Positions 1 to 34,129 of a stretch of 54,015 bases of DNA are shown in pieces. The stretch comes from Patescibacteria group bacterium. GTDB lineage: Bacteria > Patescibacteriota > Minisyncoccia > Phycocordibacterales > UBA9973. The stretch is taken from assembly GCA_038061755.1 (NCBI GenBank), contig JBBTYN010000001.1, forward strand, positions 1 through 54,015, given 5' to 3'. The notes below the pieces were generated by a model that did no database searches, was not told the origin of the DNA, and was given only the letters and a program-made list of their open reading frames with translations. Both the position numbers and the translations under genes were made by a program. Within the stretch, counting starts at the first letter, position 1. Each line of letters opens with the position of its first letter.

Positions 1-1490
1 TACCGTGAGGGAAAGGTGAAAAGCAGCCCGATTAGGGCGGTGAAATAGACCTGAAACCGTATGTCTACAAGGAGTTGGAGTTCGTCTTCGGATGAACGAC
101 AGCGTGCCTATTGAAGAATGAGCCAACGAGTTTATGCATACTGCTAGGCTAAGCTGACTAAAACAGCGCAGCCATAGGGAAACCGAGTGTTAATAGCGCG
201 ACTGTATATTTATTTATACGGGTAGAATGCATAAGACCCGAAGCCAGGTGAGCTTGCCATGAGCAGGATGAAGTTCGTCGAAAGACGAATGGAGGTCCGA
301 ACGGGTAGATCGTACAACGTCTTCCGATGACTTGTGGTAAGGAGTGAAAAGCTAATCGAACCTGGTAATAGCTGGTTCTCTCCGAAATAGCTTTAGGGCT
401 AGCGTCAAGTGTTTTCTCTGGGGGTAGAGCACTGGAAGGTTTCGACAGGGAGCAATCTCGCGAAACCTATCAAACTCCGAATACCAGAGACCATAGCTTG
501 GCAGTTAGGCCATGGGGGCGAAGCTCCATTGGCCAAAAGGGAAACAGCCCGGATCTCAAAATAAGGTCCCTAAATATATACTAAGTGTAAGACAAGAAGG
601 TGAGATTTCTTTAACAATGAGGAGGTTGGCTTAGAAGCAGCCATCCTTTAAAGATAGCGTAACAGCTCACTCATCTAGAGATTTTGCGTCGAAAATAATT
701 GGGGCTAAGTATATTACCGAATTTGAGGATGTGGTCCGACCTCGGTCGGACCACGTGGTAGGAGAGTGTTCCAATCTGCTGTGAAGCAGGACTCGTGAGA
801 GCCTGTGGAGCGTTTGGAAGTAAGAATGTTGGCACAAGTAACCGCAATGGGGCTGAGAACGCCCCACGTCGAAAGATCAAGGTTTCCTTGGTAATGTCAA
901 TCAGCCAAGGGTTAGTCGGGCCTAAGGGAATGGTGAAAACCGTACTCGATGGACACAGGGTTAATATTCCCTGACTTTTGTATTTAGTGACGAGATGACG
1001 GAGTGTAGTATGTATCGCTCATTATTGGATTTGAAGTTTGTTTACTAAAGATGATGTGTAGGAAAATCCGCACGCTGCTTTTAATGGCGAATCTAAGGTA
1101 GATGAAAAGTTTTATTCTTCGGGATAGGACAATGATACAAAGCATGCTTCCAAGAAAAATTTCTAAACTTATAAATATAAAATCCGTACCGCAAACCGAC
1201 ACAGGTGATCAGGTCGAGTAGACCAAGACGAACGAGTGAGTGGTCCCCAAGGAACTCGGCAAAAAAGCAGCCGTAACTTCGGGATAAGGCTTGCCCTTTA
1301 TTAATTTAGAGGGTCGCAGCGAAAGTATTCCTGCCAACTGTTTACCAAAAACACAGCTCCCTGCGAACTCGTAAGAGGATGTATAGGGGGTGACACCTGA
1401 CCAATGCCAGAAGGTCAAATATCGACGTTGTTATGTAGCAATATGTGATGGTGATTGATATAAGCCCTGGTGAATGTCGGCCGTAACTAT

Positions 1491-2292
1491 AGACAAAACC
1501 GTTGTAGTTACGCAAATAAATCTTGCCAAATGCTGGAAACTCTGGGTCCAATTTACATTGGATAAAAAAGTGTTGATTAGTACGAGCACACGTCGATGTG
1601 TCGTGACAATCTAATCACGCAGACAATCAGCAGGAAAGACTTCTGATCTAATAAAACATAATGAAAAATATCCCGATCGATATAGGAAACTATATTGCAG
1701 GATTTACAGACGGCGAAGGAAGCTTCAATGTCTCAATCAAAAAGAGGTTAGATTATAAAGAAAGTTGGAAATTAACCGCATCGTTCAATATTTCCCAAAA
1801 AGATAGAGTAATTCTTGCTTGGATAAAACATATCTTGGGATGTGGAACATTACGGGAAAGAAAAGATGGTGTTGTGTATTATGAAGTAACTAATATTGCT
1901 TCATTACACGATGTCATTATTCCATTCTTTAAAGTATATGGTTTTCGTTCTGCGTATAAAAAAAATAATTTTAGAATTTTTTCTGAGATTGTTAAAATAA
2001 TGCATAAAGGAGAGCATAATACCAAAGAAGGATTTCTAAAAGTTTTAGAATTAAGAGAGAAACTTAATCCTGGAATTGGAAGAAAACGAAAATACACATT
2101 ATCAAATGTAGTAACTTCAGAAGAATCCTCAGAGACTATACGCAAGACATTTTCAAATCAATAATTGGAGTCGACGATTTGGAAACGATGATATAGTCCG
2201 ATCTCTATGGCAACATAGAGCTAACATGTTTTAGTTTTTATTTGGTAAATAGTTTTATTATATATGTTTATATCATTCAACCTTAAGAAAAG
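1491..2292 (+). mobile_element. Group I intron at 23S position L1917 (E. coli numbering) carrying a LAGLIDADG ORF
   Basis: The H69 sequence stops after ...GTAACTAT (T at 1490) and resumes with AACGGTCC at 2293. The 802-nt insert follows a U and ends in G. ATATAGTCC (P7-3'-like) lies at 2191-2199. Confidence 0.85.
1661..2164 (+). CDS. LAGLIDADG homing endonuclease, single-motif (homodimer-type), intron-encoded
   Basis: 167-aa ORF with an N-terminal YIAGFTDGEGSF motif, lying wholly inside the L1917 intron. Confidence 0.9.
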   Translation: MKNIPIDIGNYIAGFTDGEGSFNVSIKKRLDYKESWKLTASFNISQKDRVILAWIKHILGCGTLRERKDGVVYYEVTNIASLHDVIIPFFKVYGFRSAYKKNNFRIFSEIVKIMHKGEHNTKEGFLKVLELREKLNPGIGRKRKYTLSNVVTSEESSETIRKTFSNQ

Positions 2293-2969
2293 AACGGTCC
2301 TAAGGTAGCGAAATACCTTGTCGGGTAAGTTCCGACGCGCACGAATGGTGTAATGAGTGGGAAACTGTCTCGGGGACCAGCTCGGTGAAAATACAATACC
2401 GGTGAAGATGCCGGTTAAGTGCAGTTAGACGAAAAGACCCTAGAAGCTTTACTATAACTTTATATTGAGCATGTTTTTTGTCTGCGTAGCATAGATGGGA
2501 GAGGTCTGATGGATTCGATTTTGGTTGAATTCTACTCGTCAGTGAAATACCATTCTTACCGAAGGCATGTTCTAACCAATACGGTAAAAACGTATTGAGA
2601 CAGTATATGGTGGATAGTTTTACTGGGGCTGTACCCTCCTAAAGAGTAAAGGAGGGGTTTAAAGGTAATCTAGGCGCGAATGGAAACCGTGCCGATAGTG
2701 TAATGGCACAAGATTGCTTGACTGTAAGAGGTACATCTCGAGCAGGTACGAAAGTAGAACATAGTGAACCGACCACCCGTGTTAGACGCGGTGGAAGATT
2801 AACGGATAAAAGCTACTCTAGGGATAACAGGCTAGTTCCGCCCAAGAGTTCATATCGACGGCGGAGTTCGGCACCTCGATGTCGGCTCACCTTAGCGCGG
2901 CGGTGGAGAAGCTGCCAAGCGTTTGGCTGTTCGCCAATTAAAAAGGTACGCGAGCTGGGTTCAGACCGT

Positions 2970-3276
2970 ACTGAAGCGGAAATTTATTTCGGCTGAAGTA
3001 CAGTTTGAACCCTCAGAGGAATTTGAATTGTAAAAATTTGAACTGTTTTAATCGAAATTAACCAAGTACATTAAATTGTACACACGGCGGTGCTGTATAG
3101 AAATATATAGTAACAAGCTGACTTATATCGGTGGAATCCGAATCCAGAAATGGAAGGATAATACCGAGGGAAAAATTATTTGTAAAAATATTTTGCCCGT
3201 AGAGACTAAACGTCAGCAGTCCTAATTTTAGGATGAAGCTATAGTCCAATCCACACAGTAATGTGTGACGTAGATG
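2970..3276 (+). mobile_element. ORF-less group I intron at 23S position L2593 (the I-CreI-type homing site)
   Basis: GGTACGCGAGCTGGGTTCAGACCGT (ends 2969) is rejoined by CGTGAGACAGGTTGGTC at 3277. The 307-nt insert follows a U and ends in G. It has GTAGAGACTAAACG (3199-3212) and GCTATAGTCC (3238-3247), resembling P7 strands of known group I introns. It contains no credible ORF. Confidence 0.8.
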
Positions 3277-3328
3277 CGTGAGACAGGTTGGTCTCCTATC
3301 TACTGCACTCGTTGATTCTTGAGAAGAT

Positions 3329-3359
<31 letters not shown>

Positions 3360-3609
3360 TGACCTCTGGTGTACGAGCTGTCCTGCCAAGGGCACTGCTC
3401 GGTAGCTATGTCGGGAATGGATAACCTCTGAAAGCATCTAAGAGGGAAGCCAGCTTCAAGATTAGGAATCGTTAAGAACCGTGAGAGATGATCACGTTGA
3501 TAGGCTTTAAGTGTAAATGCAGTAATGCATTCAGCTGAGAAGTACTAATGTTTCGATTCCTGTTAAGAAATTTGAAAATCACAAAAAAATTATTGAGATC
3601 GAGTTTTCA

Positions 3610-14444: not shown

Positions 14445-14576
14445 TTTTTGGTTTGCTTTTTAGAGAAATTAAGGTAAAATTAGCAAGTGCCTTAGAGAGG
14501 CATTTTTTAATATAGCGGGGTAGACCCGCCAGAGGACGGGCAGGGAATAGGTATCTTAGAGAAATTATTTTTTTAT

Positions 14577-14647
14577 AGCGGGGTAGAGAAGAGGCATCTC
14601 GTAAGGCTCATAACCTTAAGACCCACGTTCGATTCGTGGCCCCGCAA
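14577..14647 (+). tRNA. tRNA-Met(CAU), initiator-like (1:72 mismatch)
   Basis: Manual cloverleaf: AGCGGGG/TA/GAGA-AGAGGCA-TCTC/G/TAAGG-CTCATAA-CCTTA/AGAC/CCACG-TTCGATT-CGTGG/CCCCGCA/A. A1 opposes A72. No CCA is encoded. Confidence 0.8.
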
Positions 14648-14702
14648 CAAGTCGGCAAGTGACATGCCAAAATGTCTTATTGTCGAGTATAATGTATATT
14701 AT

Positions 14703-14775
14703 GTCGGCGTAGCTCAGTTAGTAGAGCGGAGGACTCATAAGCCTCAGGTCGCAGGCGCACTCCCTGCCGCCGACA
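14703..14775 (+). tRNA. tRNA with CAU anticodon (elongator Met or Ile2) and a non-canonical T-loop
   Basis: Cloverleaf: GTCGGCG/TA/GCTC-AGTTAGTA-GAGC/G/GAGGA-CTCATAA-GCCTC/AGGTC/GCAGG-CGCACTC-CCTGC/CGCCGAC/A. The T-loop lacks the TTC-purine-A pattern. Confidence 0.6.
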
Positions 14776-14816: not shown

Positions 14817-14853
14817 TGGTATAATTTACAGGTGCCGATATATAGAAAAATAA

Positions 14854-15333
14854 ATAAGAATTTTTTTAAAAAATGGACAAGAGAGATGGCATAAACAATC
14901 ATATCGTTTACAAATTGGAAGTAAGGATATGTGTGAAGATTTAATGTGTCTTGGTTTAACAGAAAGAAAAAGTAAAATAATTTTATTGCCAGCAATACCA
15001 AAAAAGTATTTTTCTCATTTTTTACGAGGTTATTTTGATGGTGATGGTGGAGTATGGGTTGGATTAAAAAATAAAAAACAAAGTGGAAGAATTCATACAA
15101 TTAATACATGTTTTACATCTGGGAGTAGAGATTTTTTAATATCCTTAAAAAAGGTTTTATCTAATAATGGTCTTTCGGGTGGATCTTTAGTGAAAAAGGA
15201 AAGAGGTTTTGATTTAAAATATAGTGTTAAAAATTCTTTGATTTTATATAAAATTATGTATAATGATGAGTGTACCTTATTTCTTAAGAGAAAGAAGGAT
15301 AAGTTTGAAAGTTATATAAAAATGCGGTCGTAG
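14854..15333 (+). pseudogene. LAGLIDADG homing endonuclease remnant (C-terminal domain only)
   Basis: The open frame starts right after a TAA at 14851. It reads ...SYRLQIGSKDMCEDLMCLGL...FLRGYFDGDGGV, which is the end of domain 1 plus domain 2 of a two-domain enzyme. The N-terminal domain is missing. The stop codon lies inside the tRNA-Asp 5' end. Confidence 0.6.
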
Positions 15334-15612
15334 CTCAACTGGTTAGAGCGCCTCCCTGTAGGTTATACTGCAGCTTCCTCGTTAAAGCGGGGTTGAAACT
15401 CTTTGGGATATCGGTGAAGGCTAAACTCTGACTTAATTGTCATAGCATGCGAATACCGAGGGAACCTTAACACTTTGTTGAGGGCGCCGTAGAGACTAGA
15501 TACCGAAGCACCTAAAAGTTAAAAACTTATGGTGAAGATATAGTCCACGCCTTTATGAAAATATTGGATAAGTGCACGGAGGAGGTTGCCGGTTCAAGTC
15601 CGGTCGATCGCG
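15324..15612 (+). tRNA. tRNA-Asp(GUC) interrupted by a group I intron in the anticodon loop
   Basis: Exons: GCGGTCG/TA/GCTC-AACTGGTTA-GAGC/G/CCTCC-CTGT | CAC-GGAGG/AGGTT/GCCGG-TTCAAGT-CCGGT/CGATCGC/G. The spliced loop CTGTCAC and G73 fit tRNA-Asp. Confidence 0.75.
15360..15574 (+). mobile_element. Group I intron (215 nt, ORF-less) between anticodon positions 35 and 36
   Basis: P1: CTGT|AG pairs with CTGCAG, giving the U.G wobble at the splice site. The intron ends in G. GTAGAGACTAGA (15489-15500) and GATATAGTCC (15537-15546) resemble the tRNA-intron (Azoarcus/Anabaena-type) core. Confidence 0.75.
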
Positions 15613-33904: not shown

Positions 33905-34129
33905 AATCCTGCTCAGGCAGAATTTTGGATCCTTCAAATAAATATATAAATAAAGGTTATCCTGCTCGGGACACGTAAAATGATTGGTAGTCGGACTTGT
34001 TCCTTACACCTATTGGTGTTTAGGACTTACCGTAGCGGCACTGTACTGGAATCTAACCAGTTTCCCCAATCATTTATTTTAATTTTCAAGCGAACTTCTT
34101 TAGTATATACTTACTTTATATTATGTCAA
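33905..34129 (-). promoter_or_regulatory. Candidate promoter plus structured 5' leader (attenuator/riboswitch-like) of the four-gene operon
   Basis: On the minus strand: TTGACA (34129-34124), 16 nt, TATACT (34107-34102). A relatively GC-rich core is closed by a 10-bp helix, 34075-34066 with 33987-33978. Duplicated GAGCAGGAT boxes sit around a hairpin plus U-tract. Confidence 0.3.

Follow-up and report, generated by a model that had tools for sequence, protein, structure and literature searches.

Four classical cases in which bacterial tRNA genes contain group I introns (Leu.3Ug, Arg.5Ug, fMet.2Ug, and Ile2.5Ug) have been extended to 21 classes in a preprint that also contains an aspartate class, Asp.4Ug, with the seed Wba81.Asp.4Ug (Williams, bioRxiv 2020, doi 10.1101/2020.01.27.920355). 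That study does no more than list the Asp.4Ug class; it describes no splicing test for it, and its main text mentions no flanking endonuclease gene. The literature searched yielded no experiment on the splicing of this class. In the candidate phyla radiation (CPR), tRNAs that carry group I introns have been noted as well (Lui et al. 2021, PMC8172020), and free-standing homing endonucleases, collaborative or trans homing, and intronless homing have been reviewed (Hausner, Hafez & Edgell 2014, PMC3984707). Here, we analyzed a 54,015-nt stretch of DNA from a Patescibacteria group bacterium (contig JBBTYN010000001.1, hereafter the window), in which an original prediction made from the sequence alone had placed a tRNA-Asp(GUC) gene interrupted, between anticodon positions 35 and 36, by a group I intron of 215 nt. 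Covariation, the position of the junction, and a comparison with empty sites bear this out. The locus is very probably a tRNA-Asp(GUC) gene of Patescibacteria (CPR, Paceibacteria-type) that carries a 215-nt group I intron without open reading frame (ORF) between U35 and C36. No intron of this type in tRNA-Asp was known to the original prediction. The kind is already catalogued in the preprint, and the window intron, which lies after the fourth nucleotide of the anticodon loop, with U at −1 and G at the omega position, adds a member to class Asp.4Ug. As such, the intron is nothing unusual for the CPR; what looks new here is the decayed homing-endonuclease gene beside the tRNA.

A sequence check and ARAGORN run with introns allowed (-i), which calls tRNA-Asp(gtc) with a 215-nt intron at the locus, agree with the prediction that complete tRNA halves flank the insert. 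The spliced halves form a cloverleaf with a GUC anticodon. As had been proposed, the loop CUGUCAC with C38 and the discriminator G73 match tRNA-Asp identity, and G10 is also present. The identity set of Escherichia coli tRNA-Asp includes G73, C38, and G10, and G3:U70 and A73 are expected of tRNA-Ala; throughout the split tRNA-Asp family, the tRNA body has G3:C70 and G73. Close relatives for the comparison with empty sites were obtained via a neighboring gene, orf211. The spliced window tRNA is identical at 72 of 74 nucleotides to the uninterrupted tRNA-Asp of L207, L210, and L215, and both differences belong to a single compensated anticodon-stem pair (U-A to C-G). A further 50 uninterrupted CPR tRNA-Asp genes are colinear with the spliced window tRNA, with no gap in the loop.

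Judged from these sequence comparisons, the junction is fixed as CUGU/CAC (the slash marking the splice site) by the invariant U.G pair of helix P1, by the covarying P9.0 pairing in front of an invariant omega-G, and by the uninterrupted relatives. The P9.0 pairs A15547-U15573 and C15548-G15572 place the omega-G at 15574. The original prediction had named an alternative junction (CT/TGCAC, giving Ala-UGC) as a possible refutation. A shift of two nucleotides upstream on both sides (CU/GUAG...AAG/UGCAC) would indeed yield tRNA-Ala(UGC). In either register, the 5′ exon has U as its last nucleotide and the intron has G, and ARAGORN not only admits the Ala product but also calls two homologs (L168 and L169) Ala. 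In this register, however, the P1 partner of U33 is an A instead of a G, whereas a wobble G pairs with U35 in 19 of 19 sequences. The omega-G would have to be nucleotide 15572, which is the covarying partner in P9.0 and is A in four homologs and U in one. The tRNA body has G3:C70 and G73 instead of the G3:U70 and A73 of tRNA-Ala, and intron-less orthologs show CTGTCAC. The alternative is thus excluded by the P1 register, P9.0 and the omega-G, tRNA identity, and the empty sites, and we consider its probability negligible. An Ala(GGC) junction was rejected as well.

Homologs of the intron were collected by scanning one genome per GTDB species with a pattern in which CTGT, AGAGACTA, and GATATAGTC follow one another with gaps in between, which gave at least 119 loci; counts from the genome and metagenome scans are lower bounds biased by this pattern, the CTGT anchor of which enriches tRNAs with GUN anticodons. 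The motif pair AGAGACTA...GATATAGTC was found in 0 of 100 shuffles. Among the 119 loci listed, ARAGORN -i found split tRNAs in 70, of which 20 were tRNA-Asp, and 18 of these had the anatomy of the window gene, CCUGU/AG...UGCAGC ... (R)UG/CACG. Nearly all of these come from metagenome-assembled genomes (MAGs) of Patescibacteria, from several classes, and metagenomes add at least 11 split tRNA-Asp genes. An alignment of the 18 homologs with the window sequence (A1, n = 19) contains more than 100 invariant columns, every one of which is kept in the window.

Base pairs in A1 were counted on an explicit structure comprising the tRNA stems, P1 to P9 with P7 as a pseudoknot, and P9.0. Standard pairs occupied 96.7% of the cells, vs 37 to 44% when the partners were slid by one to three columns. 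Compensatory double changes occurred in 46 of 79 pairs, and the observed values were reached in 0 of 500 shuffles. Such changes affect four of the five pairs in the anticodon stem, the strands of which lie on opposite sides of the insert, and four of the seven in the acceptor stem; the D stem covaries too. Within the intron, covariation is strong in P2, P3, P5a, P6a, P8, and P9, and compensatory changes are likewise seen in P4, P5, P6, and P9.0. The P9.0 pair C15548-G15572 (alignment pair 243–268) is CG in 13 sequences, UA in four, and UG in one. The predicted P1, in which CUGUAG pairs with CUGCAG to place the wobble pair U15359.G15370 (alignment pair 38–49) at the 5′ splice site, is present, and its pairs C.G, U.A, G.C, U.G, and A.U are invariant in 19 of 19 sequences. 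The insert ends in G as stated, and this omega-G is invariant both in A1 and in 11 further metagenomic copies, whereas the nucleotide two positions upstream varies. The two core motifs pointed out earlier lie at 15489–15500 (GTAGAGACTAGA) and 15537–15546 (GATATAGTCC); the stretch 15489–15508 is invariant in all 19 sequences and fits the Rfam consensus aAGACUA. A hidden Markov model (HMM) of the family matches 15365–15574 (E = 1e-49). The fold is that of a group I intron, P1 to P9 with a P3/P7 pseudoknot. As a candidate member of subgroup IC3, the intron agrees by inspection with the Azoarcus row of the Williams alignment in its architecture (P2, no P2.1, no extended P5abc, P9.0, and a GNRA L9); in P4 and P6, its sequence departs from that of classical IC3 introns.

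Several observations weigh against this assignment, those on the endonuclease being taken up further below. The original prediction had proposed a check with group I models. The Rfam model RF00028 (Intron_gpI) does detect the fold, matching 15272–15567 with 42.1 bits and E = 2e-9 in a 551-nt local search only, but the score falls short of the gathering score of 50 bits, which is an annotation cutoff and no biological criterion. P1 and P7 can form in all 19 sequences yet never vary, and so provide no covariation evidence; for P1, the reason is that its exon strand belongs to the anticodon loop, which is fixed. The single-sequence fold, which retrieves P1, P2, P5a, P6a, P8, and P9, is only weakly better than that of shuffled sequences (z = −1.67). 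Finally, inspection of the window and its homologs by eye revealed no P10, in which CAC of the 3′ exon would pair with nucleotides 5′ of the guide G. The coordinates of all features are collected in Table 1.

Table 1. Features of the split tRNA-Asp locus and its upstream neighbors (window coordinates)
Feature	Position	Strand	Evidence or remarks
tRNA-Met(CAU)	14577–14648	+	Upstream neighbor of tRNA-Asp, conserved in relatives
Second CAU-anticodon tRNA	14703–14775	+	Upstream neighbor of tRNA-Asp, conserved in relatives
Free-standing LAGLIDADG homing-endonuclease gene of the double-motif type, pseudogene	14826–15333	+	Pfam, family HMM, homologs
tRNA-Asp 5′ exon, positions 1–35	15324–15359	+	ARAGORN -i, covariation, colinearity with uninterrupted genes; ends CCTCC-CTGT
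Acceptor, 5′ strand	15324–15330
D stem	15333–15336 with 15346–15349
Anticodon stem, 5′ strand	15351–15355
C32 U33 G34 U35	15356–15359
ORF-less group I intron, IC3-like P1–P9 with P3/P7 pseudoknot	15360–15574	+	Rfam, covariation, family HMM
P1	15356–15373	+	CUGU/AG 15356–15361; internal guide CUGCAG 15368–15373; L1 15362–15367
P2 hairpin, CCUCGU with GCGGGG	15377–15392	+	Compensatory in 6 of 6 pairs; loop GAAA in most homologs
P3, 5′ strand CUUUGG	15401–15406	+	Partner 15503–15508; compensatory in 5 of 6 pairs, 100% paired
P4-P5-P5a-P6-P6a domain	15411–15488	+	Covariation
P4	15411–15416 with 15454–15459	+
P5	15420–15421 with 15449–15450	+
P5a	15426–15430 with 15441–15445	+
P6	15461–15462 with 15487–15488	+
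P6a	15465–15471 with 15477–15484	+
J6/7 GUAGA, P7 5′ strand GACUA, J7/3 GAUA, P3 3′ strand CCGAAG	15489–15508	+	P7 strand 15494–15498; P3 strand 15503–15508
P8 hairpin	15509–15534	+	Compensatory in 5 of 6 pairs
J8/7 AAGAUA, P7 3′ strand UAGUC, J7/9 CACG	15535–15549	+	P7 strand 15541–15545; P7 invariant
P9.0	A15547-U15573, C15548-G15572	+
P9 hairpin	15550–15567	+	GAAA tetraloop 15557–15560; two U.U mismatches in the window lineage
3′ tail AUAAGUG	15568–15574	+	Ends in omega-G, G15574
tRNA-Asp 3′ exon	15575–15612	+	Begins CAC-GGAGG
C36 A37 C38	15575–15577
Anticodon stem, 3′ strand	15578–15582
T arm	15588–15604
Acceptor, 3′ strand	15605–15611
Discriminator G73	15612		CCA not encoded

From the established group I mechanism, we infer that the window tRNA-Asp is spliced and that the intron is self-splicing. 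The precursor would fold into P1 to P9 with the P3/P7 pseudoknot, and the internal guide 5′-GCAG would pair with C32-U33-G34-U35, the U35.G wobble marking the 5′ splice site. From its binding place in P7, an external guanosine would attack after U35. With the help of P9.0, omega-G15574 would then take the place of this guanosine in the P7 pocket, and the freed 3′-OH of U35 would attack C15575 (C36), joining the exons to give the loop CUGUCAC. Since the tRNA anticodon stem passes into P1 without a break, this stem presumably positions the 3′ exon.

The split gene sits at the syntenic tRNA-Asp site (gene order GatA, orf211, tRNA-Met, tRNA(CAU), and tRNA-Asp), where all ten sampled relatives have a tRNA-Asp, and splicing is therefore probably required for decoding Asp codons. 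ARAGORN and Rfam found no other tRNA-Asp within the 54-kb window. On this comparative basis, splicing is likely essential. Should this be the only tRNA-Asp gene, a bacterium with a minimal genome would depend on a ribozyme to decode its Asp codons. The insertion might instead be dead, the tRNA being a pseudogene and Asp codons being read by the product of another genomic copy. The adjacent endonuclease gene is a pseudogene, the search for tRNA-Asp genes covered 54 kb of the genome, and P9 has two U.U mismatches, as could be expected of such a locus. Yet the window retains all helices and each of the >100 alignment columns that do not vary among the 19 pre-tRNAs, its exons differ from intact orthologs by the one compensated pair only, and the U.U variant of P9 is common to L023, L080, and L091. 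Synteny with the tRNA-Asp of all ten relatives also speaks against a dead insertion, as does the finding that the tRNA set of closed CPR genomes is full only if tRNAs containing group I introns are included (Lui et al. 2021, PMC8172020). We consider a dead insertion very improbable.

tRNA-Asn(GUU) and tRNA-Tyr(GUA) genes have related introns at the position that is occupied in tRNA-Asp. The Asp, Tyr, and Asn introns are mutually 60 to 67% identical and are 52% identical to introns in tRNA-Arg(UCU). Because they share one site and their guide reads only C32-U33-G34-U35, this CPR-wide family appears, from sequence, to target the CUGU common to tRNAs with GUN anticodons, and it offers a compact example of intron targeting set by a guide sequence. 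For 11 loci (L017, L022, L027, L029, L033, L042, L057, L059, L064, L081, and L100), ARAGORN calls tRNA-Thr(UGU) with an intron after U33. The bodies of these genes (U1...A72, G73) fit tRNA-Asn and not the CPR tRNA-Thr(UGU) (GCC..., U73), and with the junction CUGU/...UG/UAA, they are tRNA-Asn(GUU), the two-nucleotide ambiguity being the same as that between Asp and Ala. The "Thr.2Ug" seed of Williams 2020 (Pgr210, P1 cuguc with GGCAG) may reflect the same misassignment between Thr and Asn. Split tRNA-Arg(UCU) genes (CCUU/...G/CUAA) were found outside the CPR (L004, L009, L028, L031, L034, L041, L052, L065, L067, L096, and L116), with hosts that include Acidobacteriota, in which tRNA-His follows the split gene, MAGs of Arenicellales/Gammaproteobacteria, and the isolate Alkalicoccobacillus gibsonii KCCM 41407. 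The 23S rRNA gene of the window (1–3569) itself contains group I introns at 2028–2220 and 3062–3268 (+), with 50.8 and 64 bits, above the Rfam threshold; the 23S match spans about 1.1 kb beyond the model positions covered. Their relationship to the intron family of tRNA-Asp is only weak (E = 2e-11 and 1e-3 with nhmmer).

Directly upstream of the split tRNA-Asp lies the remainder of a LAGLIDADG endonuclease gene. The first 23 codons survive at 14829–14891, in a frame that differs from that of the main ORF, with a stop behind them; what is left as an ORF (14929–15333) has the second motif only (FLRGYFDGDGG) and matches Pfam LAGLIDADG_3 with E = 4e-5. The family HMM covers its positions 65 to 224 with E = 4e-68, and positions 1 to 25 in another frame. 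The window copy thus does not have both motifs in one intact ORF, and the missing first motif together with the broken frame identifies it as a pseudogene. Full-length homologs of about 220 amino acids occupy the same place in other genomes; they match LAGLIDADG_3 with E = 7e-13, and D30 and D126, the catalytic Asp residues of the two motifs, are invariant in an alignment of ten sequences (A2). The nearest solved structure is PDB 2DCH (E = 3e-9), whose deposit is labeled "putative homing endonuclease". Homologs were found in L003, L015, L023, L039, L053, L062, L080, L087, L099, and L120–L199, beside both split and unsplit tRNA-Asp. We found no paper on free-standing LAGLIDADG genes abutting CPR tRNA genes in the literature searched, which was incomplete.

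The window ORF ends in K-M-R-S-stop, encoded by aATG-CGG-TCG-TAG; the tRNA begins with the G of ATG, and the stop codon TAG (15331–15333) corresponds to U8-A9-G10 of tRNA-Asp. The stop codon lies inside the tRNA at 54 of about 75 loci, mostly at positions 8 to 10 (UAG) and otherwise at 13 to 15 or 21 to 22. One may speculate that RNase P, in processing the tRNA, would deprive the endonuclease mRNA of its stop codon and thereby keep expression limited. A role of the LAGLIDADG protein as a maturase was rejected, given that 50 endonuclease-bearing loci are unsplit and the window copy is a pseudogene. A sister group within the same LAGLIDADG family stands upstream of tRNA-Cys(GCA), behind which tRNA-Leu(UAA) usually comes next (metagenome loci L181, L187, L190–L193, L195, L197, and L198), and the stop codon of these genes, too, is within the tRNA at most loci. 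This suggests that, as the LAGLIDADG family diversified, its members came to target different tRNA genes at their 5′ ends. Two relatives have, between orf211 and tRNA-Met/tRNA-Asp, ORFs of about 230 amino acids that fit no Pfam family clearly (L215:3444–4136 and L218:4024–4719); Pfam rejects them as LAGLIDADG, and they may be another mobile tenant of the tRNA array.

When loci were selected by the intron, an endonuclease gene or remnant was found directly upstream in 17 of the 18 others (18 of 19 including the window). Nine are full length; the others have been truncated or frame-shifted, run into a contig end, or retain no more than the last 26 to 35 codons. These intron-bearing loci span Saccharibacteria and Nomura-, Zambryski-, Vogel-, Harrison-, and Daviesbacteria. 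A second sample, drawn from metagenomes by the endonuclease (the best 80 of at least 482 relatives), contains 50 unsplit vs 11 to 13 split tRNA-Asp genes, about 80% of the endonuclease-bearing loci being without intron; some ten loci in this sample belong to the sister group upstream of tRNA-Cys(GCA). No unsplit tRNA-Asp was found among loci L001–L119, and the background was drawn via neighbor genes instead. The close relatives selected in this way, ten distinct loci, are all unsplit, with spacers of 20 to 176 nt that hold no full endonuclease gene and one remnant. Introns are hence almost confined to loci with a present or past endonuclease (Fisher p = 1e-5), a statistic that is weak because the background of ten loci is small and phylogenetically narrow, coming from one clade.

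A co-conversion tract usually extends well beyond 36 bp, and a typical LAGLIDADG site is about 22 bp long. In a reading that accommodates the three samples above, the ORF-less intron may have hitch-hiked on endonuclease-driven gene conversion, to which we assign nearly an even chance. The endonuclease would home into empty tRNA-Met/tRNA-Asp spacers, and the intron, 36 bp away, would sometimes be co-converted with it. The endonuclease gene would then decay, and selection on the tRNA would hold the intron in place; the intron would outlive the endonuclease because its imprecise loss would destroy an essential tRNA. In its most specific form, the proposal is that the tRNA-Asp intron has been mobilized in trans by a previously undescribed free-standing LAGLIDADG family that inserts exactly at the 5′ boundary of tRNA genes, at tRNA-Asp and, in a sister group, at tRNA-Cys, and uses the U8-A9-G10 stop, which we put forward tentatively, as somewhat short of an even chance. 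If true, this trans mobilization would be a chromosomal, CPR-wide counterpart of the "collaborative homing" of phages. The stages of the endonuclease gene, from intact to a 30-codon remnant, form a natural series for the spread and persistence of ORF-less introns in cellular genomes.

In classic collaborative homing, the endonuclease would cut in the anticodon loop and the intron would confer immunity. The linkage of a free-standing endonuclease to an ORF-less intron resembles that of psbA/F-CphI in cyanophage S-PM2 and of T4-type phages (PMC3984707), and the near restriction of introns to loci with a present or past endonuclease would also be expected. However, 50 full-length endonuclease genes stand beside an uninterrupted tRNA-Asp with a normal CUGUCAC loop, so that the intron is not needed for self-protection unless other substitutions protect these genes. 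Between the point of endonuclease insertion (tRNA −1/+1) and the site of the intron lie 36 bp, a distance beyond the reach of a site of some 22 bp. Moreover, the endonuclease tree does not follow intron state; with the 50 unsplit loci, this indicates that the endonuclease does not need the intron, which makes strict immunity unlikely. The immunity scheme is therefore improbable, and a requirement for the intron to protect the endonuclease-bearing genome was rejected as the sole model because of these same 50 loci.

The main rival to hitch-hiking is that intron and endonuclease are independent tenants of the tRNA locus, the intron moving by reverse splicing into CUGU anticodon loops and the co-occurrence reflecting shared ancestry or sampling. 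The intron-free majority of endonuclease loci, the lack of congruence between the endonuclease tree and intron state, and the small single-clade background all favor this view. So do the related introns in tRNA-Asn and tRNA-Tyr, which have no upstream homolog of this endonuclease, as fits targeting by a 4-nt guide rather than by a protein. On the other side stand the 17 of 18 other intron-bearing tRNA-Asp loci with an endonuclease or C-terminal remnant, in several CPR classes, the short, endonuclease-free spacers of the ten intron-less close relatives, and the location of the intron site within usual co-conversion tracts, 36 bp from the endonuclease insertion point. Independent tenancy is a serious possibility that we hold to be somewhat less likely than not.

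Routine annotation responds poorly to this locus. In its default mode, ARAGORN called no tRNA at 15324–15612, and Rfam searches of the whole window, in both gathering and E-value modes, did not report the intron, which routine annotation would consequently miss. The group I seeds of Rfam include none from bacteria (Williams 2020, doi 10.1101/2020.01.27.920355), and according to its own paper, tRNAscan-SE 2.0 was not designed for detecting tRNA genes split by group I introns. Because default tools miss the split tRNA-Asp, a CPR genome like that of the window would be reported as lacking tRNA-Asp, which would distort inferences on completeness and codon usage.

The window DNA is bacterial, with a GC content of about 33%, and encodes a 23S and a 5S rRNA gene, housekeeping proteins (GatCA, SecD, a release factor, and CTP synthase), and several tRNAs. 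The closest kin of its genes and of the intron are MAGs of Paceibacterota, Nomurabacteria, and Zambryskibacteria, and metagenomes from Hainich groundwater hold contigs identical to the window. The second CAU tRNA scores 55 bits with Rfam and is missed by ARAGORN; its T loop, CGCACUC, is non-canonical, the loop being UUCAAUC or UUCGAUC in relatives (L222 and L207) and deviating in L217 and L218 too (UGCAACU). The 13-nt start of the tRNA-Met region, ATAGCGGGGTAGA, recurs about 63 nt upstream (14511–14524 vs 14574–14587, +) and may be the remnant of a partial duplication. A borderline match to a cobalamin riboswitch lies at 33965–34113 (−; 32.5 bits vs a gathering score of 31.5). A scan for promoters and terminators gave no more sites than shuffled sequences did.

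Compared with known systems, the window intron shares with Asp.4Ug of Williams 2020 the host tRNA, the CUGU/CAC site, U at −1, G at the omega position, the P1 exon CUGU paired with ..GCAG, and the core motifs GUAGAGACUA and GAUAGUCC. Compared by eye, its sequence is nearer to the seed Mba143.Tyr.4Ug than to Wba81.Asp.4Ug (P4 AUCGGUGAA, P6 GG with CC). Like the classical IC3 introns (Azoarcus tRNA-Ile(CAU), Anabaena/cyanobacterial tRNA-Leu(UAA), tRNA-fMet, and Agrobacterium tRNA-Arg(CCU)), it is ORF-less, belongs to the size range of about 200 to 250 nt, lies in the anticodon loop, and has P2, no P2.1, a simple P5, P9.0, and a GAAA L9; the motifs J6/7-P7 GUAGAGACUAGA and J8/7-P7 AAG.NAUAGUCC of the Azoarcus row are also shared. 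It differs from them in the host tRNA, in the loop position (after 35), and in J3/4-P4 and P6, which depart from the classical AAAUUCGGGGAAA and GCC-AAG...AA-GGU pattern. Self-splicing has been demonstrated in the classical introns and is predicted for that of the window.

Group I introns with LAGLIDADG genes were reportedly described by Brown et al. in 2015 from CPR 16S and 23S rRNA genes. The same combination is attributed to Tsurumaki et al. 2024 where that work is cited in PMC11809585. These insertions resemble the window locus in having a CPR host and in combining a group I ribozyme with a LAGLIDADG enzyme; in the rRNA genes, the endonuclease ORF lies within the insertion, whereas in the window it is outside the intron, upstream of the exon. 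Among phage homing systems, the psbA intron of S-PM2 with F-CphI and T4 mobE with the I-TevIII intron were compared (PMC3984707). The series of full-length, truncated, and remnant endonuclease genes in the window family is as expected from a homing cycle. Unlike the phage systems, the window locus is part of a cellular CPR chromosome, its endonuclease is of the LAGLIDADG type and not HNH, GIY-YIG, or EndoVII-like, and the host gene is a tRNA, which the ORF enters so that nucleotides 8 to 10 serve as its stop codon; in addition, most loci with this endonuclease are intron-less.

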